From Candidatus Chlorohelix sp. (GTDB taxonomy: Bacteria; Chloroflexota; Chloroflexia; Chloroheliales; Chloroheliaceae): a stretch of DNA of 13,064 nt. The translations under genes and the position numbers were made by a program. The notes under the pieces were generated by a model. The model did not search any database, was not told the origin of the DNA, and was given only the letters and a program-made list of their open reading frames with translations. Within the stretch, counting starts at the first letter, position 1; each line of letters starts with the position of its first letter. Location of the stretch: assembly GCF_037138995.1 (NCBI RefSeq), contig NZ_JBAXHI010000063.1, forward strand, positions 1 through 13,064, written 5' to 3'. Positions 995-12,882 of this stretch are shown here, one piece after another.

Positions 995-1822
995 TCAACC
1001 TTCATCTTCCTCAGTCGGGATAGTGGTGTCGTTGTCAATAACATTATCATTCGTAGTAGCAACTAGATTATCAGAGTCAGAAGTATCAGTAACGTGATTA
1101 ACTCCAGCTATAATCCAGCCTACACCCTTATTGGGAAAGTGATCCAACTGATTCTGCACTTGGCTGCCCACACTGGCATTGACCGAAGCGTCTAAGGGTC
1201 CTAAGTTCTCTAAATCATCAGTTCCCCCGAACTGTCTATCTATCTTATGGTCAAGTTGCTGATTTTTTTCTAGGGTTTCGTTTGTTTCTTTTTCGTACAA
1301 GGCTCTTAAATTGTTGTTACGTGGCAATTGCTCATTTATAGTCAGATTTTGACCATTTTCTATACTTTCATTATAGTAACCCACCTTTTTTTGAGCTTCG
1401 GCTTTTTGATAGTCCGTCCATGCCTGTTTGTCCTTTACGTTCAAAACAAAAGCGGCAAAGCTCTCTTCATTTTTTCTTAGGTTAGCTTTTTCTTTTTCTT
1501 CCTCTGTTGGTTCATCCATACTGAACACTACTTCGTCTCTATCGGCATCAGTTATTATGGTAGGGTTTGCTTTGTCCTGCTCTTCGGCTTGCCAAATTTG
1601 AAAGTTTGCCCGGATTTTATCCGGGTCTTCAAAAGTATTATTAATATTGTCCAAAATACGTTTCTGAAAAGCGGGATGAACACCTGCTTCTTCTAGGGAG
1701 GCAATAAATTTTTGCTTTAGTTGTGTACCTGTATTAGCATCTCCAGGGATTTGCAACTTTTCTTCTTCACTGAAGCAAGAATCATCTTTATCCTCATCCG
1801 ACTGTTCATAACGTTTCTTCAT
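995..1822 (-). CDS. Highly acidic hypothetical protein (~275 aa, D/E/N/Q-rich, no recognisable domain); last gene of the operon.
   Basis: Long ORF. The preferred start is the internal ATG at 1822 (MKKRYEQ…), which sits 3 nt after the TAA stop of the upstream gene (1825-1827) with GAGGA 5 nt upstream. The track's longer start at 1897 would overlap the upstream gene by 73 nt. Composition is strongly acidic. Function unknown. Confidence 0.6.
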   Translation of the reverse strand: MKKRYEQSDEDKDDSCFSEEEKLQIPGDANTGTQLKQKFIASLEEAGVHPAFQKRILDNINNTFEDPDKIRANFQIWQAEEQDKANPTIITDADRDEVVFSMDEPTEEEKEKANLRKNEESFAAFVLNVKDKQAWTDYQKAEAQKKVGYYNESIENGQNLTINEQLPRNNNLRALYEKETNETLEKNQQLDHKIDRQFGGTDDLENLGPLDASVNASVGSQVQNQLDHFPNKGVGWIIAGVNHVTDTSDSDNLVATTNDNVIDNDTTIPTEEDEG

Positions 1823-1824
1823 TT

Positions 1825-4800
1825 TTATCCTCTGAGTATGGCTGCTATTAACATAAATATACCAAGTACCAGATCCAGTGGTAGGGTAATACACCAAAGC
1901 AAAAGTATCCCTATACCCAAGAAAAACGAAGCCAGGATTGAACGTGGTATAACTTCAAATGCGATTGGTACTGTCATAGGTGGCTGTCCACTGAGTTGTA
2001 TCTGTATCGGAATAATCTGATGACCAGGCGGGCGCAGTGATCTTACATACCCGCTAGTGATAAAAACTCTTTCCCAGATAGTGGTTTGTAGTGAAAAAGA
2101 ATAATTTAAAGTTTGACCACCAAAAGAGGCAGTTGGAGCTAAGATGGTGCTAAAAGAAAAGCCTTCCTGCCCAGGATTTTGTACCGTAACAGTGGTGTAA
2201 CCACCCTGCCCATTACCGTCGCGGCCCATATTTAAAAGTGTTAAAGTTCCGGTGATTATATCGCCTGTGCGTATTGTTGACTGATAATTCAACTTTGCCT
2301 GAATAGACGAAGTTGGTAAATTCGTGTCGCAGTTGCGCAGAAATATCTCTACCACTTCATTTTGATAAAGCTTATTCATATGGGCATCACTACCAATATA
2401 CTGATTCTGCTGCAAGGATTTTGAGGACATTATAGCTTGCTGTTTCAGACGTTCGTTGCGTAATCCGTACTCAAACCATCGAGCAAGTTCACCAGAGGAA
2501 AGATGATGGGGAATCTCGTTCCAATGGCAACGATCTACCGCTGCGATAAAATCTCCCAGTGTCGAGGCTTGTTCGGGTGGGGCAGTAAACTCAAATGGCG
2601 CTCTGGCTTTGATGTTGTATTGCTGTGGTAAACTGGCGACCTCCGGCAGTGGTGTGGCAGGTGGCGGAGTGCTGGTAGGTAATTGCTTATTATAATCGGC
2701 ACGTAGCGCAGGATCCAGCAAAATTCTTTCGGCTTCCTGTAAATACGCCAGCTTACGATTTGCATCATCCTGATCCTCTGGAAAGGGGGAGGTTTGTTGC
2801 TCTTGAAGCTGTTGGCGGGTATGTGCAATGCGTTGGCGAATGAAGTGTTCGCTGGCATCACGTTCTGCCTCGATAAGTTCATAGTAGTTACAAGCCGGAT
2901 TAGATGTAGCTGAGAGTGGCTGCGCTATTGCTTCTGGTGGTGTTTCTACACCAACTATAGAGGCGCGGATAGAGTCTCCATTCTTTCTGATTTTATCTTG
3001 CAGCTCTGTGCGAACATTCGCCAAATTTTTGCTACAATATTCTTCTATCATCTTTTGCGCTTCTTGTGTTTCAGGATCTATATAACTAAAATTGGTTATT
3101 GACCTCCATTCGTCAGGGGGGTTGTTTTTATATAACTTATCCCTAAGCTTATTGGAAGCTGCCAACCCGATTCCCTTGATTATTCCCAATGTTAAATAGC
3201 AAACTATGACCGCCACTAACGAGAAAGCACCTGGAGAATAAGTATAATAAGAATAATGGGGGTGTACAGCTGTATTAAGAGATGCGGTTGCTACCCCAAC
3301 CACTATCATAGGAAACAAAAAGCCTAGCCATGTTGGAATTGCCAGAGTAGCCATGTTTCCTATGCTGAAAAGCGTATATGCAAGCAATCCAAAGAGTAAA
3401 CTACCGGGTATTTCGAGCCATTTATAATTTACCATGTCAAAAATCGCAGCGCTTACACCAACAATGACTGCTAAGACCATGCCTATTACCAAGTTAGCCC
3501 AGCCAAAAGTTAATCCCCAGCGTTTTATGGCGTAGTTAGGGCTATATTTTTCCGGTACTATTTGAACCGAAATTGAAAAGGGATAATTACCAGAAGGTGT
3601 TTCCAACAAAAGTTTGAAATCATTGTAGCGGCTGTTATAGCTCAACTTTGAGCTATCTATTTCAATCATCAAAACAGTATCGCCCTCAATAGCAATACTA
3701 TCCAAACCTCGTACCGAACCGTCTGCATAGCCTAAACGAACTGGACGTTGCGTATTGGTACTCCGAAGAGTACCGTAGAAATAACCACGTCCCTGCCGAG
3801 CAATTTTCAGCAAGCGGTAAAATGGTTGGCGTGTGCGATCTAATGGGCCTAAATTCAGCGCTCCAGTCGGTTGAAACTCTCCTTCTAATCCCATAGCCAA
3901 TAATGGTTGGGGATGAGGTAACATTGGATTAAGCACATGAATAACTTGCTCCAATAATATCCGGCTACTGGAACGGGAATTTCGAATGAGGTCAGCCACG
4001 TTGCGGGCTATGATTCCATCTACCTGTTGCAGCCACTCTACTAGGATACTACCTCCTGGGCTTCGCAAGAGATAAACGGCTTCTTGTGCAGTGCTATCTG
4101 CCAAAACCGAAATTTCTTGAGCGGATGAAGCATAGCGACCTGATCCTAGAACTAGAAGAGGCTTACAATTGAGAGTACGGAGTGGTGCATGCTCCATTAC
4201 TAGCCACCAATAAAAACGGTGAAGGGTAAAACTCCAGTCATTATTGCACTGCCCGACGATTTCTAGGAAACGCTTGCGTGCTATTGCATCTGCTACCCCA
4301 TAACGTAGCCACCCATCCATGTTACCATTACTGCACGCCTGTAAAGCATCTTCCCAACTTTCGGGAGCCATTTGCACCAAATCTACTAGGTCAGCGGCAC
4401 TGTGTATGCCAAGTTGCAAATTACCTATACTGGCTTTAGCCAACGTTTGATTGTATTGTTCGCGTTGTTTAGGGTCTAACAGTTTTGGCAACAACTGATC
4501 CAAAAAACGAATCTTTTCCCTAGCACGTTGCGCAGTCAGGGCATCCACACTTTCGGCAGTTTGGTTTAGAGTTGCGTAAATGCGGCTGTAAGCAGTTTTT
4601 ATTTCTTCTGCACTGGCAGAAGGATTCACACTTAGAATCTCGTAGTAATTACGGGCATGCTCCATCTGGTCGAGTAGCTTGCGCCCGTCTATGTGCTGGA
4701 AGTTATCACCATAACGATGCACGGCTTGCCCGACCCCGGTTTCATGTAAACCGCCTAAGCCGGACTGGTTAAGACCGCCCAAATAACCTTGCCCATTGGA

Positions 4801-4833
4801 AGGTTCCTCAGGTAGCGGATAGGTTGTATTCAT
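1825..4833 (-). CDS. Large polytopic membrane protein (1002 aa) with two J-domain-like modules lacking HPD, a central ~4-helix TM bundle and a C-terminal TM hairpin.
   Basis: J-like module 1 is aa ~60-131 (nt ~4441-4656): NYYEILSVNPSASAEEIKTAYSRIYATL…AREKIRFLDQLLPKLLDPKQREQYNQTL. J-like module 2 is aa ~648-718 (nt ~2680-2892): NYYELIEAERDASEHFIRQRIAHT…ANRKLAYLQEAERILLDPALRADYNKQL. Both follow the J-domain helix I-II and helix III patterns (YYEILGV…EIKKAY… / …AYEVLSDP.KRA.YD), but neither has HPD. Hydrophobic segments lie at aa ~438-558 (nt ~3160-3522) and aa ~966-1000 (nt ~1833-1936). A P/T-rich linker is at aa ~719-735. SD GGAGAGGAAG ~10 nt upstream of the ATG. Confidence 0.8.
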   Translation of the reverse strand: MNTTYPLPEEPSNGQGYLGGLNQSGLGGLHETGVGQAVHRYGDNFQHIDGRKLLDQMEHARNYYEILSVNPSASAEEIKTAYSRIYATLNQTAESVDALTAQRAREKIRFLDQLLPKLLDPKQREQYNQTLAKASIGNLQLGIHSAADLVDLVQMAPESWEDALQACSNGNMDGWLRYGVADAIARKRFLEIVGQCNNDWSFTLHRFYWWLVMEHAPLRTLNCKPLLVLGSGRYASSAQEISVLADSTAQEAVYLLRSPGGSILVEWLQQVDGIIARNVADLIRNSRSSSRILLEQVIHVLNPMLPHPQPLLAMGLEGEFQPTGALNLGPLDRTRQPFYRLLKIARQGRGYFYGTLRSTNTQRPVRLGYADGSVRGLDSIAIEGDTVLMIEIDSSKLSYNSRYNDFKLLLETPSGNYPFSISVQIVPEKYSPNYAIKRWGLTFGWANLVIGMVLAVIVGVSAAIFDMVNYKWLEIPGSLLFGLLAYTLFSIGNMATLAIPTWLGFLFPMIVVGVATASLNTAVHPHYSYYTYSPGAFSLVAVIVCYLTLGIIKGIGLAASNKLRDKLYKNNPPDEWRSITNFSYIDPETQEAQKMIEEYCSKNLANVRTELQDKIRKNGDSIRASIVGVETPPEAIAQPLSATSNPACNYYELIEAERDASEHFIRQRIAHTRQQLQEQQTSPFPEDQDDANRKLAYLQEAERILLDPALRADYNKQLPTSTPPPATPLPEVASLPQQYNIKARAPFEFTAPPEQASTLGDFIAAVDRCHWNEIPHHLSSGELARWFEYGLRNERLKQQAIMSSKSLQQNQYIGSDAHMNKLYQNEVVEIFLRNCDTNLPTSSIQAKLNYQSTIRTGDIITGTLTLLNMGRDGNGQGGYTTVTVQNPGQEGFSFSTILAPTASFGGQTLNYSFSLQTTIWERVFITSGYVRSLRPPGHQIIPIQIQLSGQPPMTVPIAFEVIPRSILASFFLGIGILLLWCITLPLDLVLGIFMLIAAILRG

Positions 4834-4861: not shown

Positions 4862-5173
4862 CTATGAATCCCAGCCCATTTGTTTTCTGATATGCTGGTG
4901 ATACGCTTCCAAAGAACCATACTCCTTGTTTATACGGCGCGTATTTTCCTCTATCGCGTCTAATTCTTTATTCCAGGCTGAACCCCAGCCCTCATCAAAG
5001 CGGGGTATAGGGTGTTCTGATGGGTCGAAGCCAGAGTCGTCCCAATCTCCCTTCGGTGACACACCATAATCGTTCGAGGGTTCAGGATCCGTTTCCAACT
5101 TCTCGTCTTCTGTTATTTCCTGCTCTAACGGTTGGTCTGAAATCTGGTCGTCTTGATCTTCCTGCAAATCCAT
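4862..5173 (-). CDS. Small, highly acidic hypothetical protein (103 aa).
   Basis: ORF with a strong SD (AAGGAGAG, plus 5178-5185) 4 nt upstream of the ATG. It sits 18 nt after the upstream ATPase gene and 28 nt before the next gene. Strongly D/E-rich. No recognisable domain. Confidence 0.6.
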   Translation of the reverse strand: MDLQEDQDDQISDQPLEQEITEDEKLETDPEPSNDYGVSPKGDWDDSGFDPSEHPIPRFDEGWGSAWNKELDAIEENTRRINKEYGSLEAYHQHIRKQMGWDS

Positions 5174-5191: not shown

Positions 5192-8100
5192 TTATTTGGG
5201 AGCTGAAGACTCTTTCTGAGTACTAAATTCCACCATCAAGATTTCGAAAGCACGCGCGTGATAGTCTGACAATAACGTTTTTACTTTTAAAGCATCTTGC
5301 GGGTTGTCTTCCAAGTAAAGCGCACCCATATAAGCTTGAGCGCAATAGCTACTATTCAATTGGAGCATACTAGATGGTTCGGTCAAGTTATAACCCATCT
5401 GTGCAGTTACTCGTTTGATAGCTTTCCCATACTCAGGCCAAACTGAGCTAGGCAAACCGTCCGGTTGGGTGCTTTTAACAGCTTTTGCAAAAGCGATCAT
5501 AAACTCCTGACGGGCAAATTTTGGCAAAGATTTGATCAAAGCCTGAAAAAGACAGTGTCTGGAAGCATTCCAAACGGAACAATGCGTGCAGGTTGGATAA
5601 GGCGCAACCCCCGATTTACCGGGTGTGGTTTTGGGTTGGGGTGCTGCTGGAACAAAAGGTAGGTAACTGCCAAAACTGTGGTCGGGTAGCTTCGTGGCTG
5701 TCAAGCTACGAATACCTGAGTCATCAATAATTGCCAATTTGTTCAAATCATCTATAAGATTGGGCACACCTAGATGAACCGGTCCGAAGGCGCTACCCAC
5801 CAGCAAATGTCCGGTTTGAAGGTTACGAGCATAATCAGTTTGACGTTCATCCAGATTGAGCAACTGACTGTACAATTGGAAACTGTCGGGGTCCTCCAAC
5901 CGATGCATCAATTTCAAATTGCTATTGCCAATAGCTCCTTGAATAAGATTTACCGGCATCTGTTCGGCTATGATAATGCCTTCGCCAAAGCCCCGTACTT
6001 CTGCCAATAGGTTACTGAAGTCTTCACCCGCTGCTCCTTGGGGACTAGCATGGTCCTGGTTAGCCTGGTTATGCCGAGCCATTACCCGGTGCGCTTCTTC
6101 AACTAACGTTACATGCAACTGTTCAGGACGATGGTGTTCAATATACTCGCTGACCAGAACTAGCAGCATACCCATAATCAAGGCTGTATCCTGAGGGGAA
6201 CCAACCCGTCCTATTTCCATTATCACCGGACGTTTCATCATATCTCCGATCTCTATCGAAGACCGTTCCACATTAACCACGCTCCCGGCAGTAGCTATCA
6301 GATCGCGTATGCGAATTTCCGTGGCTTGCTCAATACTGCTCTGGGTTTCTTTGCCGTATTGAAGAGAAGCAGTTTCATTTTGTAAAGCAGCGTAAAACTC
6401 CGTAAAGTTCGGGGCAGGTGGGCTGTCCGGACCTCCCTTGCCTGTTTCAATATTCCAGCCCTTGTTCTCGTAACACTTGCGTAGCGCTGCCCGGTAAATG
6501 GCAGGAAGTGGGTCCCACATTGTAAAAGCGGCATTAAAGCAGCGCATCAGACGACTAATATGCTGTTTCAATAAGACCTTGTCTCCTACTGCAAAGGGAT
6601 TGAAGCGGAATGGTGCAGTAGTTTCATCTCCCAAGGTAAAAACCAATAGATCGAGACAAATAGGTCGACGTTGCACCTCATTCCCAAAATAAAATGCAAA
6701 CTGCTCATTACTCAAGCCATCCAGATTAGCTAGGCTGCGGTAATCCGGTTTGTCAATTGGATAAATCACCAAGAAGGGAATACGATATTTAAGCCAGAGT
6801 TGGGATAGCAGATAAAGACAGGTATTGGTTTTGCCGCTGCCGGTTGTGCCAGAAATCAGAGTGTGGCGAGCAAACTGACTCCAGGGCAGTCCAAAATCTT
6901 CGCCTGTGGACTGACCACGGTGAATAATGTTGCCCAATTTTACACTGTTTTCAATGAGAGAAGACCCCTCTTGCTTTGTCTGTTCATAGCGTGGGGCTAC
7001 AAACGGCTCATCTTTCACTACTACACCAGCCATAAACCCGCTGGCAGGTGGAACAGGTAGCCGAAAAGCGCCGCAGGCTTCTGTGGCAGTAACAATGTAG
7101 CGCAACCGCTCCAGACCAGGCGCTGAAAGGGTAGCCCCCCAAGGGTACTGTTCAAGATAGCGCAAGTTATTGAGTGCAATAGCATGATCGTTGGTTTTTA
7201 CCGGGTCGAACAACTGCCACTGGGTGGGGTAGTCATTTACAGTATTGTTCATACACTCGGAACCGAGTGCTTCCGCTACCGCAGCAGGTGCGCTTTTTTC
7301 ACCGGCAATTTGGATTTTCAGCAAGAAAGTATGGTTTTGTTCTTTTACTAGTTGCGTGTAAACCCAACGTCCTACCCTAGAGCGAAAGACCAGATAAGCG
7401 TTATCGGTGGTAGCTCTTATTCTGTCTTCTCGCTCTAGCACCCTTGTCATGTCATCAAAACGCTGGGCTGCGCCGTTGAGATAAAGGATTTCATCGGCGT
7501 AGAGTGAGGTAGGACGCAAACAAATACTTACCACAGTTCGCTCTTTTTGAGTCGCAAGAGCTTCAAAAAATCGGCTCATCGCACTGAAATCCAGCGATGG
7601 AACCAAAGGATGAACAATGTAATCACCCACCTCCTCCCGCCGTCCTAACCCCATAGCGCTGGTGCGAATCGGTAAGTCCTCAAACTTGCGAATTTCCAAC
7701 AATGTTCCTGGCTCTTTGAGGGCTGCGTACCAGTTAGCGTCCCCAAAAATTTCAAGAAAAGAAGCTTTGTCTGTCAGGGGTTTGAGAGGATAATTAAAAG
7801 GATCCTCAAGAGGGAAATTAGCAGAAAATTTAGCCCACAAGCGCAAAGAGACATCTCTAGCAGTCTTATAATCCGGGTCAAAAACTTTACAAACAAAGGC
7901 TATCCGTATTTTCCCCAGTTTGCCGGGAATAGTACTCGGTTGTTGGATAAAACGTAACTCGTAAGTAGCTTGTTTCTCGCGAAAGGTGGAAATATCATAG
8001 ATGAAACGAATTTGCCGTTTTACAACTTTTCCAATTCTGGAGTCGGCAAAGTCGTTACCACGAAAGCTAGGAATAAAAGGAACTTCGGCTGCCCAAAAAA

Positions 8101-8206
8101 TATGCCAGCCATCAAAGGGTTGGTGTTGTACTCCTTTTTTATCGGCATAACCTGTTTCTATATAGGCAGCTTGTTTTACTTCGTATAGGTAAGGTGTGCT
8201 GAGCAT
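5192..8206 (-). CDS. HerA/FtsK-superfamily P-loop ATPase (1004 aa) with a ~450-aa N-terminal domain of unknown function and a C-terminal Cys/His cluster.
   Basis: Walker A TLISGTTGSGKTNT at aa 450-462 (nt 6827-6850 encode SGTTGSGK). Walker B HVTLVEEAHRV at aa 698-708 is the hhhhEEAH form typical of HerA/DUF87-type ATPases. A sensor-like IIIAEQMPVNL…NSNLKLMHRL follows. A single P-loop domain spans aa ~430-830. No N-terminal TM segments. C-terminal CTHC-x7-HC at aa 873-885 could bind zinc. Confidence 0.8.
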   Translation of the reverse strand: MLSTPYLYEVKQAAYIETGYADKKGVQHQPFDGWHIFWAAEVPFIPSFRGNDFADSRIGKVVKRQIRFIYDISTFREKQATYELRFIQQPSTIPGKLGKIRIAFVCKVFDPDYKTARDVSLRLWAKFSANFPLEDPFNYPLKPLTDKASFLEIFGDANWYAALKEPGTLLEIRKFEDLPIRTSAMGLGRREEVGDYIVHPLVPSLDFSAMSRFFEALATQKERTVVSICLRPTSLYADEILYLNGAAQRFDDMTRVLEREDRIRATTDNAYLVFRSRVGRWVYTQLVKEQNHTFLLKIQIAGEKSAPAAVAEALGSECMNNTVNDYPTQWQLFDPVKTNDHAIALNNLRYLEQYPWGATLSAPGLERLRYIVTATEACGAFRLPVPPASGFMAGVVVKDEPFVAPRYEQTKQEGSSLIENSVKLGNIIHRGQSTGEDFGLPWSQFARHTLISGTTGSGKTNTCLYLLSQLWLKYRIPFLVIYPIDKPDYRSLANLDGLSNEQFAFYFGNEVQRRPICLDLLVFTLGDETTAPFRFNPFAVGDKVLLKQHISRLMRCFNAAFTMWDPLPAIYRAALRKCYENKGWNIETGKGGPDSPPAPNFTEFYAALQNETASLQYGKETQSSIEQATEIRIRDLIATAGSVVNVERSSIEIGDMMKRPVIMEIGRVGSPQDTALIMGMLLVLVSEYIEHHRPEQLHVTLVEEAHRVMARHNQANQDHASPQGAAGEDFSNLLAEVRGFGEGIIIAEQMPVNLIQGAIGNSNLKLMHRLEDPDSFQLYSQLLNLDERQTDYARNLQTGHLLVGSAFGPVHLGVPNLIDDLNKLAIIDDSGIRSLTATKLPDHSFGSYLPFVPAAPQPKTTPGKSGVAPYPTCTHCSVWNASRHCLFQALIKSLPKFARQEFMIAFAKAVKSTQPDGLPSSVWPEYGKAIKRVTAQMGYNLTEPSSMLQLNSSYCAQAYMGALYLEDNPQDALKVKTLLSDYHARAFEILMVEFSTQKESSAPK

Positions 8207-8255: not shown

Positions 8256-9626
8256 TCAAGACAGGCGTGCCTCTAGATATTCGATTACTTCCCGTATTTC
8301 ACTTTCAATTGTCCACTCTTCCGGGTCTAGCAAGGTACACTCGATATTTGCCGACTGATTTTGTCCCTCTACCAGCACTTTTTGTAGAATAGGTGGAACT
8401 GCCGGGTAATCGGAGCCACATAACAAGCATACATAAGCTTGTCGCCCAGAAGAACGTAATTTGAAGTTTACTTCCACCAACCTTTTACCGGTGAGCATGC
8501 CGTTTGGACTGCGTTCCGGGGCATCGTTCGCATCAAGCACATAACTTAATTTTTTCAGCCGGGTTATTGCTTGCACAAAAGAAATACCCTCAGATTTTTC
8601 AGTCGGTGTACTGTTGAAAGCATTTGCACTGAAAGGCACTTGACCAGAGTCCTGTTGGTTTGTCTCAGCGCCAGTAGGCTGGCTAAAACCTCCAGGCGAC
8701 TGGGCATACCCGGTACCCTGTGCCGGTTCAGTTGGCAGATAGTGATTTGGCGCGGGTTGGAAAGCGTTAGGGGCATATTGGTTAGGCATAAAACGGTTTA
8801 CTGGAGCATTAAGATAATCCATACCGCCTCCGCCCATTTGCTGAATAATCTGGGGAGCAATTGCTTGGACATTTTGTTGACCATAGATAAGACTACCGTA
8901 AGTTATTGGAGCGTCGTAGGTAAGATCAATATGCTCACGAGTACCGGCAGCTTGCTCGGTAGCGGTACTAATGGTATTGGGTTGCTTGATCTCAGCTATA
9001 GTAATGTGTTCAACCAGTAAGCCAATGGAATATAAACGAGAGTCTTCGGTCAATGTGCTACGAATGAGGTGGTCTACGTCCACACGGCTAAATAACAGGT
9101 CATGATAATCACAGCGCCCAAAAGCTCGGCGGGTAGCCTGAGTAACACAATCCCGCAACGTTTTAGGAGCCGAAAAAGGGTTACTGCGGATGAAGCGATC
9201 TACCCCAGAATCGCCCCGTACACTCAGCACTTTGTTATCTACCCGAAAATTAACATTAAGGGTTATGGATAACTCGATAGGTTTACCGGAACGTGGCTCT
9301 TGACCATAATGGTTGGTTCTGCCAGTAAATTCATTGTGTACCGCATTAAATTTATCAGCAATCTGAATGCTTTCCTGCCGAGTATTCACAAGGACGAAGC
9401 GAATCTTGGAGTGAAAACCTGGTTTGGCTACACGATGACAGCCTGGCGGTAGAATAGCCCACAATTGATGATTTACATAAACCACCCCTGCCGTATTAGG
9501 TTCGATTTCAACCCCAGCGTTATTAAACAACCAAGACCAAAACCCAACTTCGTTAGTCTCGTCCCGTAAAATTAATACCGGTTCGGAGTTGTATGAGGGT
9601 GAAGGAATATTAGGATAGTTGCTCAT
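8256..9626 (-). CDS. Fusion protein (456 aa): N-terminal SPFH/band-7 (stomatin/prohibitin-like) domain, low-complexity G/Q/P/N/A-rich linker, C-terminal UBC/RWD-like (E2-fold) domain.
   Basis: SPFH-like, aa ~35-216 (nt ~8979-9524): VEIEPNTAGVVYVNHQLWAILPPGCHRVAKPGFH…IELSITLNVNFRVDNKV…TLRDCVTQATRRAFGRCDYHDLLFSRVDVDHLIRSTLTEDSRLYSIGLLVEHITIAEIKQP. This aligns with the HflK/stomatin pattern V.EGE.GVV.RFGK…L.PGLH…V.VD.VV.YRV.DP…TLR.V.G….ELL..R..I…L…WGI.V..V.I.DI.PP. Linker aa ~255-345. E2-fold, aa ~346-456 (nt ~8259-8591): FVQAITRLKKLSYVLDANDA…GRQAYVCLLCGSDYPAVPPILQKVLVEGQNQSANIECTLLDPEEW. Compare UBC …GG.F.L.I.FPEDYPFKPPKV.F.T.I.HPNI…G.ICLDIL…W. The HPN triad is degenerate (QNQ). A Cys is present in the ECTLL position. 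Strong SD AAGGAGA (plus 9636-9642). Confidence 0.75.
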   Translation of the reverse strand: MSNYPNIPSPSYNSEPVLILRDETNEVGFWSWLFNNAGVEIEPNTAGVVYVNHQLWAILPPGCHRVAKPGFHSKIRFVLVNTRQESIQIADKFNAVHNEFTGRTNHYGQEPRSGKPIELSITLNVNFRVDNKVLSVRGDSGVDRFIRSNPFSAPKTLRDCVTQATRRAFGRCDYHDLLFSRVDVDHLIRSTLTEDSRLYSIGLLVEHITIAEIKQPNTISTATEQAAGTREHIDLTYDAPITYGSLIYGQQNVQAIAPQIIQQMGGGGMDYLNAPVNRFMPNQYAPNAFQPAPNHYLPTEPAQGTGYAQSPGGFSQPTGAETNQQDSGQVPFSANAFNSTPTEKSEGISFVQAITRLKKLSYVLDANDAPERSPNGMLTGKRLVEVNFKLRSSGRQAYVCLLCGSDYPAVPPILQKVLVEGQNQSANIECTLLDPEEWTIESEIREVIEYLEARLS

Positions 9627-9657: not shown

Positions 9658-11211
9658 TTAAACACGCAATCGAATTTCACCTTGTACACTGCGCTCATAT
9701 TTAGGCGCTTCCGCTACTGCTTCCAACAACCCATCAGCCCGACAGCGAATAAAGACATTGACCTCGGTCTGGGCTGGTAAATTAGGTAAATCGAACTGAA
9801 GCTCCCCTATAGTAATACACTGGGACAGTTCCGGTGTGTCACCTTGTACCAGAGAAATAACTGCCCCACCAGGGGTATTAGTGTGGTATTGGCGACTAGA
9901 CCAGTTTTGCATGGGCAGTGGGGTGCCCCTTGATAAAATTATGCTGTTAAAGTCCGGCCCATTCGGTCTGGAGGCTACTACCCCGATTGAATAAGGCAAA
10001 ATATCACTCACCTCTAGTCCGCCCAATTCATTACGTACAGCCTCACTTACTCCACCGAGGCGACCTTGGCGACCCTGACTATCCTGTTTGCTTTCTTCTT
10101 CAACTTTGATTTTGCCTGCCATCAATGCGGCACCATGCGCCACTGCTTTATCCGGATTTAGAGCGCTGTTAACTTTCTCTTTGCCAAACTTTCCGCATAG
10201 TCGTTCCCTTACTAAGGGAATACGGCTACTTCCTCCTACCAATAAAACTAGGTCGATTTGCGAAGTCGAAAGTTGCGCCTTTCCGATAGCTTGATCCATC
10301 TTTGTTTCTGCTCGAATAAGCGCCCCCTCAATCAGGCTGTTAAAAGTATCTCGGTTGAGATTTATCTGGTAAGATCTTCCCAACAAATTCAGTCGTAGCG
10401 TTGTTTCATGCCGATTGTGACCGCTCAGCTCTACTTTAGCCTGCTCTGCCCGGCGGCGCAGCTCAAAAAATTCCTGAGGGCCAAAACTGCGACGATCTAC
10501 CTGATGTTGAGAAGCCAGTTGTTGGGCGATATAGCCGATAATAGCTTCATCAAAATCTTTCCCCCCCAGTCGGTTATCGCCATCAGTTGCGAGTACCCGT
10601 ACTCTCCACCCACCGCTTGTTCCGGGTTCCATTCTTAAAATAGTCGCATCGAAAGTGCCTCCTCCTAGGTCATAAACTGCTACATTTTGAGCTACAGGCT
10701 TACGTCGCGCGGTATAATCCAGCGCGGCAGCCGTTGGTTCCGAAACCAACATTATAGAGTTGAACCCAGCTTTTTCCCCTGCTTTACGTGTACGCTCTTT
10801 CCCGCATGCGGTCATATTGGCGGGTACTGTAATAACCACCTGCTCTACAGGTTCATTTACTTCAAACTCTGCTGCTATTTTCAAACCTTTAAGGATTTCG
10901 GCGCTAATGTCTTCCGGTCTATATTGCTGATTGCGAAACTGTCGGACATATTGATCATTTTGATCACCTATCCTGCGTTTTATAAATTCTTCTACTCCTT
11001 TGGGATTAAAAAAACCAAGCTCAACAGCTTCCTGTCCAACCAGAATACGATTTTGGGCTTCATCGAAAAAAACCACGCTTGGCGTTGTATCCTGTCCATT
11101 GACAGATATAATCTCAGGCTTGCCCAGATCGTCTAGGCGTGCGATAGCTGAGAAAGTTGTGCCTAAATCAATACCTACGATCAAAGTTCTACCTCCTAAG
11201 ATTAAGTTCAT
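9658..11211 (-). CDS. Hsp70-family ATPase (517 aa): full actin-like nucleotide-binding domain plus beta-sandwich substrate-binding domain, with the helical lid essentially absent.
   Basis: Hsp70 signatures are present: IVGIDLGTTFSAIA (phosphate-1), VYDLGGGTFDATIL (phosphate-2), LVGGSSRIPLVRERL (adenosine), LVSEPTAAALDY. The C-terminal aa ~400-510 (VSDILPYSIGVVASRPNGPDFNSIILSRGTPLP…AVISLVQGDTPELSQCITIGELQFDLPNLPAQTEVNVFIRCRADGLLEAVAEA) aligns with DnaK SBD-beta (DV.PLSLGIE…IPTK…V.I.V.QGER…N..LG.F.L.GI.PAPRG.PQIEVTFDID.DGIL.V.A). The protein ends ~10 aa after this, so there is no SBD-alpha lid. Confidence 0.88.
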   Translation of the reverse strand: MNLILGGRTLIVGIDLGTTFSAIARLDDLGKPEIISVNGQDTTPSVVFFDEAQNRILVGQEAVELGFFNPKGVEEFIKRRIGDQNDQYVRQFRNQQYRPEDISAEILKGLKIAAEFEVNEPVEQVVITVPANMTACGKERTRKAGEKAGFNSIMLVSEPTAAALDYTARRKPVAQNVAVYDLGGGTFDATILRMEPGTSGGWRVRVLATDGDNRLGGKDFDEAIIGYIAQQLASQHQVDRRSFGPQEFFELRRRAEQAKVELSGHNRHETTLRLNLLGRSYQINLNRDTFNSLIEGALIRAETKMDQAIGKAQLSTSQIDLVLLVGGSSRIPLVRERLCGKFGKEKVNSALNPDKAVAHGAALMAGKIKVEEESKQDSQGRQGRLGGVSEAVRNELGGLEVSDILPYSIGVVASRPNGPDFNSIILSRGTPLPMQNWSSRQYHTNTPGGAVISLVQGDTPELSQCITIGELQFDLPNLPAQTEVNVFIRCRADGLLEAVAEAPKYERSVQGEIRLRV

Positions 11212-11574: not shown

Positions 11575-12882
11575 TCAAACCATTTGGATAAGTTGCTCCC
11601 AAAATGGGGTTATATCACGATTTATCAAATCCTGAGCTTTTGGTAAACACGCTGGGTTCAAGGTAATTTCTGAGATAGAATTCTGCCCAGTAAAAACCTT
11701 TAGAATCTGAGCTTGCGCTAATATCCCCACTATTTTTTCAAAATCGGCGTTACGAACCTTCTCCTGTAAAATCCCTACTGATATTGTTTTACTACCTACC
11801 AAACCATAACCTAGCAGGTAAATTAGAAATTTACGGATGAATTCCGCTTTTGGATGAAGAGTAACGGGTACAACCAGCGGGTTTTCTGTTAGAATAATCT
11901 CCTCTACTACTTTTTTTGTTTCTTCGCTTTCTTCTGCAAGAACTACTTCAGTTTCTGAGGATGAGTCATTTATTAAAGTGGTATACACCACGATGTTAAT
12001 AACTGGTTTTAAGCAAGTAACCTGTGTTATGGAACAAGTTAGAGTAACCCCCTCTGTAGTAGCAGTAGAGCTAAACCGATTTGCCAGAACCTCTTGCACA
12101 ACATTTGCTACCTCACGTGACCCTGTGTATTCTCCTACCAATTCAATGATGCTCAGGTTATTCCAAATTGAGGGGCGCAAGTCAGAAATAGACCAGTATT
12201 CCTGACCAATAAGACTAAAAATCCCGTCATACACTAGGTTTCTCAGGTTTTCTAGAAAGTTCTTTACAACAGGTATAATGTCCTGAAGTTCATCTGGAAC
12301 CGGGAGCAAAAAAGCATAGCCTGTTGGATTTTCGGTAGGAGCAATCACTAACTCAAGATGCACTTCATCATTTGTTATCAAATCTTGTTGTTGGGCAAGT
12401 ATCTCCATATAAGACTGTAACTGAGCTCCACGGTTCTCTTGTGCCACTAGCAAGATAGAGTGATAAGATGCAGGTAGAGATTGTAATATTGTGTCACGGT
12501 TCTGTGCAAACTGTTGGTAATCATGTAATTTCCTCTCAAGTTCCGGGTCTAAATGCAACAGTTGCTGTCTCTCCGTTTCCAGAATTGACTTCCTAAGAAA
12601 TCGTTGACCAGTGACAATAAGATTATCAAGGCAGTCCTGCATAGCTAATTTTAATTTTTCCTGCTCTTCCTGGTTAAGAGTTACGGTTTGTATAGCAAGT
12701 TCCTGCTGCAAACGAACTATATGTGCTTCTTTTATCCTCATGTCACGCTGTAATATTTCAAACTGTGCAACCAAAGAACTCATTTTTGACTGCTCTGTTT
12801 GCAGTTCAATTTCGAGCGATTCCATACGTTCGTGCGCATTATTTCTCAGTAAAGTAAGATTTTCACGTAAAGAGTTAGACAT
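11575..12882 (-). CDS. Coiled-coil protein (435 aa): N-terminal ~130 aa Q/E/L-rich predicted coiled coil, C-terminal domain unrecognised.
   Basis: Long ORF. The ATG abuts the TAG stop of the upstream partial ORF (TAGATG junction). Heptad-like L/I/Q/E periodicity in aa 1-130 (nt ~12493-12882). No catalytic motifs recognised. Confidence 0.7.
   Translation of the reverse strand: MSNSLRENLTLLRNNAHERMESLEIELQTEQSKMSSLVAQFEILQRDMRIKEAHIVRLQQELAIQTVTLNQEEQEKLKLAMQDCLDNLIVTGQRFLRKSILETERQQLLHLDPELERKLHDYQQFAQNRDTILQSLPASYHSILLVAQENRGAQLQSYMEILAQQQDLITNDEVHLELVIAPTENPTGYAFLLPVPDELQDIIPVVKNFLENLRNLVYDGIFSLIGQEYWSISDLRPSIWNNLSIIELVGEYTGSREVANVVQEVLANRFSSTATTEGVTLTCSITQVTCLKPVINIVVYTTLINDSSSETEVVLAEESEETKKVVEEIILTENPLVVPVTLHPKAEFIRKFLIYLLGYGLVGSKTISVGILQEKVRNADFEKIVGILAQAQILKVFTGQNSISEITLNPACLPKAQDLINRDITPFWEQLIQMV

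Follow-up and report, generated by a model that had tools for sequence, protein, structure and literature searches.

The 1002-aa protein encoded on the minus strand at 1825..4833 of the window (the whole 13,064-nt stretch that was analysed, from Candidatus Chlorohelix sp.) is a fusion protein with two homologous modules. Each of them is built from a J-like domain, a helical unit, an Ig-like sandwich (in the second module a probable one), and a transmembrane (TM) anchor, and neither of the J-like domains carries the HPD tripeptide. On balance, the protein probably acts as a polytopic inner-membrane adaptor or regulator for the lidless Hsp70 of the same operon, although both the physical binding to this chaperone and its functional effect are what we infer. 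The combination of Hsp70, J-like, SPFH, and HerA-like proteins to which it belongs is apparently undescribed.

The target gene and its occurrence

The sequence-only reading of this DNA proposed a 1002-aa membrane protein at 1825-4833; the size and the span were borne out, while the strand had to be corrected to minus. The ORF begins with ATG, preceded at a distance of about 10-20 nt by a GGAG/AGGA-type stretch. In NCBI, the protein is present as MEI7557025.1 / WP_342398644.1 and is annotated as "hypothetical protein [Candidatus Chlorohelix sp.]". A JGI copy, from an independent assembly, has a single noted difference (E686Q), and the protein was also found on ENA and Logan contigs. Since these independent assemblies (JGI, ENA, Logan) carry the same protein, it is no assembly artefact. 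Among the 1.84 billion representatives scanned in full with HMMER, only three proteins of related loci share the non-J parts of the target, namely P0122, P0129, and the product of the gene downstream of P0122 in locus L005; by this count, the target appears to be a rare, near-orphan protein. Because so few sequences are available, conservation arguments for the non-J parts have a weak basis. The full-length AF2 model is poor (pLDDT 45.6). The N-terminal ~57 aa (4663..4833, minus strand) are Gly/Gln/Asn-rich and probably disordered, as aa 1-45 are modelled without regular structure at pLDDT 25-41.

Two J-like modules without the HPD loop

A J-domain normally turns on Hsp70 chaperones. The first J-like module, J1 (aa 61-133, nt 4435..4653, minus strand), matches the Pfam DnaJ profile PF00226 with 30.7 bits, over the gathering score of 27.8, and covers profile positions 1-63 of 63; the PDB entries found over J1 by phmmer are J-domains (top 2dmx, E=0.003). 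The second, J2 (aa 648-722, nt 2668..2892, minus strand), covers the full Pfam profile but stays under the gathering score (18 bits, E=0.0032). When J2 alone was compared with the PDB, 11 matches were obtained, J-domains throughout (top 2ej7, E=0.003), and in the scan of 1.84 billion representatives ~20 proteins match J2 and no other part of the target at a library-wide E<1e-3; in both searches J2 matches J-domains only. BLASTP aligns J1 with J2 at E=3e-4. In the AF2 model, helical hairpins are seen in both modules at pLDDT 62-81, with helices 63-67, 75-93, 98-119, and 121-137 in J1 (pLDDT 65-81) and a pLDDT of 62-79 in J2. The core of the J fold and its "LLDPxxRxxYN" end are well conserved in the two copies.

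No HPD was found in J1 or J2 under any alignment, whether pairwise to PDB J-domains, to a profile of the J-like subfamily described below, or by the position of loops in the AF2 model. The pairwise PDB alignment puts N90-Q91-T92 of J1 and Q-T-S of J2 at the HPD position, and the subfamily profile puts S95-V96-D97 and S682-P683-F684 there. The AF2 loops between helices II and III, at 94-97 and 681-684, agree with the latter placement, so that the loops read E94-S95-V96-D97 (nt 4543-4554) and T681-S682-P683-F684 (nt 2782-2793). The proposal of two J-like stretches lacking HPD thus held: J1 lies above the Pfam threshold, J2 finds J-domains only, both fit the subfamily profile, and PDB alignments, family-aware alignment, and the AF2 model give the same outcome for the loop. 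The two observations that the sequence-only reading had named as fatal to it, a lack of J-domain hits in profile searches and an HPD revealed by careful alignment, were looked for, and neither was made.

Module architecture and membrane topology

The helical region of the N-module (aa ~139-305, nt 3919..4419, minus strand) consists of two repeats, each with a beta-hairpin and about five helices, marked by the motif W-x(8-10)-G-x-h-x-x-W-h-R-Y. It is conserved in P0122 and P0129; it has no Pfam match and belongs to no known family. An AF2 model of aa 133-438 reached pLDDT 65.4, and fold comparison of this segment gave no match apart from the beta-sandwich that follows (aa ~308-428, nt 3550..3912, minus strand). 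This Ig-like sandwich of the ASH/PapD-like/MSP type begins at "GRGYFYG" and, as modelled, conforms to the seven- to nine-stranded sandwich that can be superposed on ASH, MSP, and PapD domains; the likeness to Hydin, CEP192, and VAP is one of fold only, at 6-15% identity and a model pLDDT around 70. In the C-module, the helical unit (aa ~755-835, nt 2329..2571, minus strand) carries "W...SSGELARWFEYGL" and is homologous to that of the N-module. The evidence for this is the hhalign comparison of segments A2 and A5 (probability 94%, E=1.2e-7, 41 columns), which links only the helical units of the modules. The beta-rich region behind it (aa ~845-961, nt 1951..2301, minus strand) contains "TLTLLNMGRDGNGQGGYTTVTVQ" and shares an N-x-G-R-x-G motif with its L005 homologue ("SVTVTNAGRPG"); its strands are modelled at pLDDT <40, and it is probably a second Ig-like sandwich. 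In L005, the two modules are encoded as separate neighbouring genes, with P0122 matching the N-module (E=3e-20) and the gene after it matching the C-module (E=4e-13), whose helical unit it also conserves. This arrangement argues that the modules of the target work as a pair.

Between J1 and J2 lies a four-helix TM bundle (aa ~439-570, nt 3124..3519, minus strand), with hydrophobic helices at ~441-465, 476-497, 500-522, and 534-558. Both of its ends have Lys/Arg-rich flanks: three Lys+Arg precede TM1 and five follow TM4, compared with 0-1 in the loops. By the positive-inside rule, these flanks and the even number of helices place J1 and J2 both in the cytoplasm; the earlier proviso that the J-like modules share one side only if the helix count is even is satisfied by the four helices that separate them. 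The predicted topology of the bundle is N-in/C-in, with all soluble parts of the target cytoplasmic. The bundle is followed by a cytoplasmic linker (aa 571-647, nt 2893..3123, minus strand), with one long helix predicted at 590-625 at low confidence. The C-terminal hydrophobic anchor (aa 963-1002, nt 1828..1947, minus strand) comprises 40 residues with P984-L985-D986 mid-way and may form either a hairpin of two short helices or a single long helix. In P0122, an equivalent hydrophobic C-terminal region was taken by eye for a TM bundle.

The sequence-only reading described the C-terminal region as beta-rich and possibly extracytoplasmic. The strands reappear in the AF2 model, albeit at the low confidence given above; the location does not stand, as no TM helix lies between J2 and this region, which puts it on the cytoplasmic side. 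An extracytoplasmic sensor role for this domain is thus unlikely under the predicted topology.

The operon and related loci

The target belongs to an operon that runs on a single strand from 12882 to 995 with intergenic gaps of 2-49 nt, except that the first gene and the Hsp70 gene stand ~360 nt apart. All of its genes lie on the minus strand. The first one (11575..12882, 435 aa) has an N-terminal part that looks coiled-coil-like by eye and gave no family match and no PDB match. It is followed by the lidless Hsp70 (9658..11211; 517 aa, or 508 aa in the NCBI call), the presumed partner of the target. The match of this Hsp70 to Pfam HSP70 spans positions 1-484 of 599, and the protein stops close to DnaK residue 505, with no alpha-lid. 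Next come an SPFH/Band 7 protein (8256..9626, 456 aa, Pfam Band_7 2.2e-7), a large pumping-type ATPase of the HerA/FtsK P-loop kind (5192..8206, 1004 aa), which is the conserved marker of the cluster family, and a small acidic protein (4862..5173, 103 aa). In related operons, too, the HerA-like gene is followed by a small acidic ORF. As had been read from the sequence, the target lies three genes from the Hsp70, with these three in between. The last gene (995..1822), which starts 2 nt past the target stop, encodes an acidic protein of 275-300 aa with only faint HNH/Endonuclease_NS_2 similarity. In PADLOC-DB 2.0, the target, the Hsp70, the SPFH protein, and the small proteins have no match, and the HerA-like ATPase gives generic HerA/mad8 matches only; no known defence genes flank the cluster on the 21-kb contig of the target. 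The earlier reading was silent on the two-module fusion, on a J-like subfamily with a usual HHD loop, and on the SPFH protein and the HerA-like ATPase.

Related loci were gathered through the HerA-like ATPase, giving 39 genome loci, with J-like ORFs in 20, Hsp70 in 11, and SPFH in 19; over the 20 loci, 72 J-like proteins were counted, the window, L004, and L005 included. The J-like subfamily occurs beside the ~1000-aa HerA-like ATPase, mainly in Chloroflexota, and usually together with a ~515-aa Hsp70 and SPFH, in the usual order Hsp70, J, SPFH, several J, HerA-like. Operons of Chloroflexota encode 1-8 membrane-anchored J-like proteins alongside the ~515-aa Hsp70, and in L004 P0129, with two HPD-less J-likes and the middle domain of the target, comes directly after a 508-aa Hsp70 (36% identical to that of the window). 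The pairing of this kind of J-like protein with this kind of Hsp70 is thus recurrent.

From 44 J-like domains of the related operons, with the target left out, a subfamily profile was made. Its matches to J1 (55.4 bits) and J2 (42.3 bits) are both gapless and compare with 30.7 and 18.0 bits for Pfam DnaJ. Both modules also show the subfamily trait of a helix II ~5 residues longer than that of DnaJ. Judged by these scores and this trait, J1 and J2 are members of the operon-linked subfamily. They are its most degenerate ones. The loops of the relatives read H-x-D in 29 of 49 cases (HHD in 27 of these), compared with SVD and SPF in the target. At least one H-x-D copy is kept in most related operons, which often combine H-x-D and degenerate J-likes, and none is kept in the target operon; L004 and L005, which belong to the clade of the target, have no H-x-D copy either.

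The closest comparison within the subfamily is provided by J-like/double-zinc-ribbon/TM proteins of Chloroflexota (e.g., L010:6384-7250 and L001:8058-8972). They share with the target the J-like subfamily, the membrane anchoring with the J-like part in the cytoplasm, and the operon partners, i.e., ~515-aa Hsp70, SPFH, HerA-like ATPase, and small acidic protein. They differ in being 210-500 aa long, with one J-like domain followed by a DZR zinc ribbon and a C-terminus that contains one or two TM helices, and they occur as 1-8 paralogues upstream of the ATPase. The target, in contrast, is one protein of 1002 aa downstream of the ATPase, with two modules, helical and Ig-like domains, and a basic rather than acidic helix II; the DZR that follows the J-like domain in the relatives has no match in it.

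The Hsp70 docking interface

In DnaK, D35 of the HPD is received by R167 and Q378 (Mayer, 2021, PMC8215388). In the operon Hsp70, R167 is replaced by M, Q378 by M, and N170 by S, while the catalytic residues are kept; the linker VLLL reads L-E-V-S and follows a 24-aa insertion. The comparison of the Hsp70 clade covered 11 sequences, of which 10 are full-length and the eleventh is N-terminally truncated. D8, K70, E171, D194, T199, D201, and P143 are kept in all 10 full-length proteins, and K414 (K or R) and P419 are retained; Arg is found at position 167 in none of the 11, and position 378 is hydrophobic in all 11. On the J side, the positions of DnaJ R22, K26, and K51 are occupied in the relatives by E (36/44), D/E (36/44), and E/D (41/44), and their Hsp70s have Arg at E206 and E217. 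This charge swap at the known steering interface argues for docking between the J-like subfamily and this Hsp70 clade, and the whole J/Hsp70 interface appears, by comparison of the sequences, to be rewired. The equivalents of R22, K26, and K51 in the target are K, S, and D in J1 and R, A, and Q in J2; its helix II is without the acidic signature of the relatives (K79/S83/R84 in J1, R666/A670/H671 in J2), and its Hsp70 has R206 and R217. Docking in the classical geometry is thus less well supported for the target than for its relatives.

Proposed role and alternative explanations

It is proposed that the J-like domains would retain the Hsp70 at the membrane or position it there, next to the SPFH scaffold and the ATPase, and that the helical and Ig-like domains may choose the targets of the chaperone or report to it. 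Since the H-x-D loop and the charge signature of the subfamily are lost, tethering or regulating is likelier than the classical firing of ATP hydrolysis.

The description of the J-like modules as catalytically silent is, nevertheless, no safe assumption, because R167 and Q378 have been lost in the partner clade, which may be activated in another way. J1 and/or J2 could still trigger the ATPase of the operon Hsp70 through contacts that replace HPD-R167/Q378, the pair being insulated from DnaK/DnaJ. The Hsp70 clade, which lacks these two residues and yet keeps the catalytic ones, K414 (K or R), and P419, would fit such an arrangement, the reciprocal charge swap of the relatives is the expected look of an orthogonal functional pair, and D97 of J1 aligns with the Asp of the subfamily HHD loop. 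However, His is missing from J1 and J2 and Asp from J2, the target is without the acidic steering residues, and its operon has no H-x-D copy where most related operons have at least one. In all systems tested, replacement of H or D in HPD ended ATPase stimulation (Mayer, 2021, PMC8215388). Retained activation by the target is therefore rather unlikely.

The same loss of both interface signatures, the H-x-D loop and the acidic helix II, could also mean that the J-likes are interaction or oligomerisation modules with no Hsp70 dealings, the Hsp70 acting on something else and the target being a membrane effector or scaffold, e.g., one that forms a pore or works with the SPFH ring and the HerA-like ATPase. 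J-like domains can be dimerisation surfaces, as in Pam16-Pam18, the short J-zinc-ribbon-TM proteins encoded in related operons have nothing like the polytopic TM bundle of the target, and the SPFH and HerA-like core is also found elsewhere without any Hsp70 or J protein. This explanation is nonetheless improbable, as a lidless Hsp70 is present in both middle-domain contexts with visible neighbours (the window and L004), and the conservation of the J core and the C-terminal motif in both copies argues for their continued selection as J-type domains.

Pam16/Tim16 is a mitochondrial protein whose effect on an Hsp70 motor is regulation and not activation; it works by heterodimerising with the HPD-bearing Pam18. 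A Pam16-type role, with the HPD-less J-likes pairing with and restraining an HPD-bearing true activator, has this precedent, and the mixture of H-x-D and degenerate J-likes would permit such pairs in related operons, but for the target it is very improbable: when all six frames of the window were searched with a J-like HMM (E<=10), J1 and J2 were the only matches, no other DnaJ match occurs among the genes of the 21-kb contig, and L005 and L004 of the same clade are also without an H-x-D copy. The analogy to Pam16 drawn in the sequence-only reading, which requires such a partner, is accordingly not supported; the target resembles Pam16/Tim16 in having an HPD-less J fold at a membrane and differs in the lack of a Pam18-like partner in the window, in architecture, and in a sequence kinship limited to the J fold.

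The cluster as a whole is probably a membrane-associated conflict or stress system. The core genes are also found with an E1/E2/JAB module replacing the chaperone pair, and some clusters adjoin BREX, McrBC, or TIR-STAND genes. A more specific and tentative proposal is that of a new membrane-associated conflict (anti-phage/anti-invader) system of filamentous Chloroflexota with an SPFH and HerA-like ATPase core. Its control module would be the lidless Hsp70 with polarity-inverted, HPD-less J-like membrane proteins, forming an orthogonal pair, interchangeable with the ubiquitin-like E1/E2/JAB; the diversified J-like membrane proteins, including the target, might serve as sensors or effectors, checked or fired by the private Hsp70.

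Comparison with known bacterial systems

DjlC of E. coli carries an HPD. Together with DjlB, it serves HscC, a specialised Hsp70 with a shortened lid, probably at the membrane; DjlC stimulates the HscC ATPase, and neither DnaJ nor GrpE serves this Hsp70 (Mayer, 2021, PMC8215388). The target system is similar in comprising a specialised Hsp70 with its own J-type proteins, here by gene arrangement. However, HscC has 550-580 aa and keeps the shortened lid, whereas the operon Hsp70 has ~515 aa and no alpha-lid, and its J-likes are without HPD. In GAP1-N2 GTPase conflict systems, components fused to HSP70, GrpE, or DnaJ were described, and extra Hsp70 paralogues, some without the peptide-binding domain, occur in operons of the conflict type in bacteria that are multicellular or filamentous, paired with fusions of a DnaJ domain and beta-rich repeats (Kaur et al., 2020, PMC7159879). 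Those systems are centred on the GTPase and include GrpE, neither of which is present in the target operon, while the SPFH protein and the HerA-like ATPase of the latter are absent from GAP1-N2 systems as described.

Significance

Most known J-like proteins without HPD come from eukaryotic organelles, and to our knowledge those of bacteria have been little studied. The operons considered here present a coherent bacterial system, in which a lidless Hsp70 that lacks the HPD-receiving residues is accompanied by a J-like family of its own, anchored in the membrane. The reciprocal charge swap in the relatives amounts to a natural experiment on insulating Hsp70/J pairs from housekeeping chaperones. 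The replacement of the chaperone pair by E1/E2/JAB and the BREX, McrBC, and TIR-STAND neighbours lead to the testable idea that a chaperone cycle may serve as a regulatory switch in a membrane conflict system. The target, with both modules on one chain, offers a compact start for work on binding, ATPase activity, and topology.

Two J-like modules without the HPD motif

The gene under study lies at 1825-4833 and encodes 1002 aa from an ATG preceded, ~10-20 nt upstream, by a GGAG/AGGA-type stretch. The sequence-only reading was right about the ORF and its two HPD-less J-like modules; it had to be corrected on the strand, which is minus, and on where the C-terminal domain is predicted to lie. The protein is NCBI WP_342398644.1, annotated as 'hypothetical protein [Candidatus Chlorohelix sp.]' (Chloroflexota), and is also present in independent JGI, ENA, and Logan assemblies. 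A nested 115-aa ATG ORF in another frame (2535-2882, minus strand) is mechanical only, with no sign of a real gene.

Both degenerate J-domains proved real in searches of Pfam and the PDB, in an HMMER scan of an entire library of 1.84 billion representative proteins, and with a subfamily profile. The first module (J1, aa 61-133) covers the full Pfam DnaJ profile at 30.7 bits (gathering score 27.8), and its PDB matches are solved J-domains (top 2dmx, E=0.003). The second (J2, aa 648-722) also covers the full profile, more weakly (E=0.0032, 18 bits); alone against the PDB it gave 11 matches, all of them J-domains, and in the exhaustive scan about 20 proteins matched only this module at library-wide E<1e-3. 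The two modules match each other with E=3e-4. They are the only parts of the full-length AF2 model with usable confidence (pLDDT 62-81); this model is poor overall (pLDDT 45.6) and was used for the two modules and for helix counts only.

The HPD motif is absent from both modules, as had been proposed. In pairwise alignment with canonical J-domains, it falls on NQT in J1 and QTS in J2. The relatives, operon-linked J-like proteins from comparable gene clusters, have a helix II about 5 residues longer than that of DnaJ. A profile built from 44 J-like domains of relatives, with the target left out, aligns gap-free with J1 (55.4 bits) and J2 (42.3 bits) and places its consensus T-H-H-D-P-E over E-S-V-D-A-L (S95-V96-D97) in the first and T-S-P-F-P-E (S682-P683-F684) in the second. 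The AF2 model agrees with this profile, with helix II/III loops at residues 94-97 and 681-684. The loops thus read SVD and SPF in the target; among the relatives, HHD occurs in 27 of 49 and HPD in 2 of 49, and H-x-D is also missing from the J-like domains of loci L005 and L004. Codon 686 (2776-2778), 2 residues past the J2 loop, encodes E in the window and Q in the JGI copy (P0001); this E686Q difference is a population variant.

Membrane topology and modular architecture

Hydropathy and the AF2 model place four TM helices between the J-like modules (~441-558) and show a 40-residue hydrophobic C-terminus. There are 3 Lys+Arg before TM1, 5 after TM4, and 0-1 in the connecting loops, a distribution which points to an N-in/C-in bundle with both modules in the cytoplasm, where Hsp70 would be expected. 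It had been argued that the modules share one side only if the number of helices between them is even; with four, both are predicted to be cytoplasmic. Since aa 570-963 contain no TM helix, the C-terminal beta-rich region (pLDDT below 40) should lie on the cytoplasmic side together with J2, and its proposed role as an extracytoplasmic sensor is unlikely. The PDB search also paired the TM region with V-ATPase subunit c'' (E=0.08), a match set aside as noise from hydrophobic composition.

In the 1.84-billion library, only two proteins share more than a J-like domain with the target. One of them, P0122 (585 aa, E=3e-20, locus L005), consists of an HPD-less J-like domain, the middle domain that follows J1 in the target, and a hydrophobic C-terminal region reading as a TM bundle. 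The other, P0129 (438 aa, locus L004), has two HPD-less J-like domains and the middle domain without TM helices. The gene next to P0122, truncated at 302 aa by the end of the contig, matches the C-terminal half of the target (E=4e-13) and contains, in this order, a J-like domain with S-P-N, 'SGELAHWLRY', and 'TVTNAGRPG'. The single gene in the window is therefore two adjacent genes on the contig of P0122. The helical units that follow J1 and J2 are also linked to each other by profile-profile comparison (probability 94%, E=1.2e-7), and on these comparisons the target is a fusion of two homologous modules. In fold searches, the helical units were without match and the beta-sandwich alone was matched. 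The word-indexed homologue search with the whole target returned only itself, the one with the middle-domain alignment found only P0129, and tblastn against plasmids gave no match to the target, which is nearly an orphan in sequence.

Operon organization

The target is the sixth of seven genes on the minus strand. The first (11575-12882) encodes a 435-aa protein of no family, whose N-terminal part looks coiled-coil-like by eye; the idea that it is a GrpE-like exchange factor found nothing in its favor, as Pfam, NCBIfam, and PDB searches gave no match. It is followed by an Hsp70 (9658-11211), an SPFH/Band 7 protein (8256-9626), a 1004-aa HerA/FtsK-type ATPase (5192-8206), an acidic 103-aa protein (4862-5173), the target, and an acidic protein of 275-300 aa (995-1822/1897). 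Intergenic spacing is 2-49 nt, except that ~360 nt separate the Hsp70 from the first gene. The Hsp70 start is ambiguous, with 517 aa in the longest ORF and 508 aa called by NCBI and JGI. The last gene (995-1897) also has two possible starts, a TTG at 1897, overlapping the target, or a start 2 nt past the target stop; its very acidic product resembles HNH/Endonuclease_NS_2 only faintly (E 0.02-0.19) and has a weak PtuA-like match in PADLOC.

Past the last gene, a 130-aa ORF on the plus strand (541-933) aligns only with the C-terminal part of the IS66 transposase profile (positions 208-282 of 284) and is a transposase remnant at the operon end. Beyond it, on the extended contig and on the opposite strand (L045:13188-20304), a large PAS/response-regulator protein, a HisKA_2 kinase, two KaiB genes, and a KaiC-like ATPase are encoded, and there are no recognizable defense genes on this side.

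Hsp70 residues at the presumed J-domain interface

Eleven members of the clade to which the operon's Hsp70 belongs, one of them (L008) N-terminally truncated, were aligned to E. coli DnaK, whose sequence was checked against an alignment. D8, K70, P143, E171, D194, T199, and D201 are kept in 10/10 full-length members. All 11 stop around DnaK 505-551 and thus lack an alpha-lid, and all carry a 13-24-residue insertion ahead of a degenerate linker. In the classical complex, D35 of HPD bonds with R167 and Q378, and DnaJ R22, K26, R27, K48, and K51 steer onto DnaK E206, D211, E217, and D477 (Mayer, 2021; PMC8215388). In the clade, Arg is found at the R167 position in 0/11 (M, N, E, T, K, K, C, K, K, A, and D instead), and the Q378 position is hydrophobic in 11/11. 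The J-like domains of the relatives (loci L006-L029, e.g., L010:1213-9976) are acidic at the positions of DnaJ R22, K26, and K51 in 36/44, 36/44, and 41/44, respectively, and their Hsp70s have Arg at DnaK E206 in 6/10 and at E217 in 8/10. This reciprocal charge swap speaks well, though indirectly, for docking of the J-like subfamily on this Hsp70 clade at approximately the classical place, and it suggests a polarity-inverted, private J/Hsp70 pair in the related operons.

The target is an exception. Its Hsp70 has R206 and R217, and both J1 (K79, S83, R84) and J2 (R666, A670, H671) are basic at the helix II positions, unlike the relatives; the charge-swap argument does not extend to the target itself.

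The wider gene-cluster family

The HerA-like ATPase has 441 homologues with 40-47% identity, mostly in Chloroflexota, and distant members in Streptomyces, Lentisphaerae, Verrucomicrobia, and one Nitrososphaerales MAG. Its P-loop core alone matches families (DUF87/HerA, mad8, CedD-like); no family is matched by the N-terminal ~400 aa or by the final ~170 aa, which contain Cys. In the encoding contigs and 39 genome loci, ORFs were mapped, clustered, and checked against Pfam. The recurrent order is a ~515-aa Hsp70, a J-like protein, SPFH, several J-like proteins (all with their J-like domain at the N-terminus, a double zinc ribbon, and, at the C-terminus, a TM anchor), the HerA-like ATPase, and a small acidic and two further small proteins. 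Clustering put 72 J-like proteins from 20 loci into a single group, with the window, L004, and L005 counted in; Hsp70 was found in 11 and SPFH in 19 of the loci surveyed. The window is a variant in which one two-module protein after the ATPase stands instead of several short J-like proteins. The C-terminal ~110 aa of the window SPFH protein (8256-8600, minus strand; '...QAYVCLLCGSDYPAVPPILQKV...'), for which Pfam gave no match, resemble, on visual inspection, the 'YP..P' strand-loop typical of RWD/E2-like domains, and so do the SPFH proteins of L001 and L010. In 10 loci (L009:13710-14291, L029:13467-14057, and eight others), the ATPase is followed by a ~195-aa protein that has a HEGRH (HExxH-like) motif and an acidic N-terminus; next, in 11 loci, comes a ~120-aa protein. 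Both are without Pfam or PADLOC match and absent from the window.

The operon of P0129 (L004:479-5290), which differs from the above, encodes a 1603-aa TIR-NB-ARC STAND protein, a 508-aa Hsp70 with 36% identity to that of the window, P0129, and a J-like-PQQ propeller protein. In a second type of cluster, SPFH and the ATPase are retained and Hsp70/J give way to RWD, E2 (E2-CBASS type), a Prok-JAB-fused protein, and a ThiF-type E1; it occurs in L003/L016 (Oscillochloris trichoides DG6), L015, L018 (Chloroploca), L021, and L027. The two sets look like interchangeable regulatory modules. One related cluster (L001/L002: 14412-22997) directly adjoins BREX genes (PglZ, BrxL) and McrBC; this cluster and the TIR-STAND operon are conflict-type neighborhoods. 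Besides the last gene's PtuA-like match, PADLOC models matched the operon proteins only as generic HerA/mad8. An HPD-less J-like protein is a known kind, but the surrounding Hsp70/J-like/SPFH/HerA-like cluster was not found described in the literature. The nearest described systems, HSP70/GrpE/DnaJ-fusion systems (Kaur et al., 2020; PMC7159879), are GTPase-centered and thus different.

Possible role of the two-module protein

A functional link of the target with Hsp70 is supported by gene linkage in two unrelated operon types, by membership in the J-like subfamily, and by the rewired Hsp70 site; this part of the sequence-only interpretation stood, and the extracytoplasmic sensor did not. On balance, we favor the target as the operon's dedicated membrane-embedded J-like partner, a putative tether or regulator of the lidless Hsp70 and not its classical trigger. 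Two degenerate J-like domains and two helical-plus-Ig-like modules would be presented on the cytoplasmic face, beside the SPFH scaffold and the ATPase. The loop and charge signatures missing from the target call for caution on classical docking. It is less likely that the target is a still-active private co-chaperone. Slightly less likely again, the J-like domains have come to serve interaction only, within a membrane effector or scaffold. A Pam16-like role, in which the target would hold back an HPD-bearing J-protein, is improbable; a second J-like protein is absent from the window and from the 21-kb contig. For the family as a whole, it is tentatively possible that the clusters are a membrane-associated conflict system, which would be under the control either of an orthogonal chaperone pair or, as its interchangeable counterpart, of an E1/E2/JAB module.
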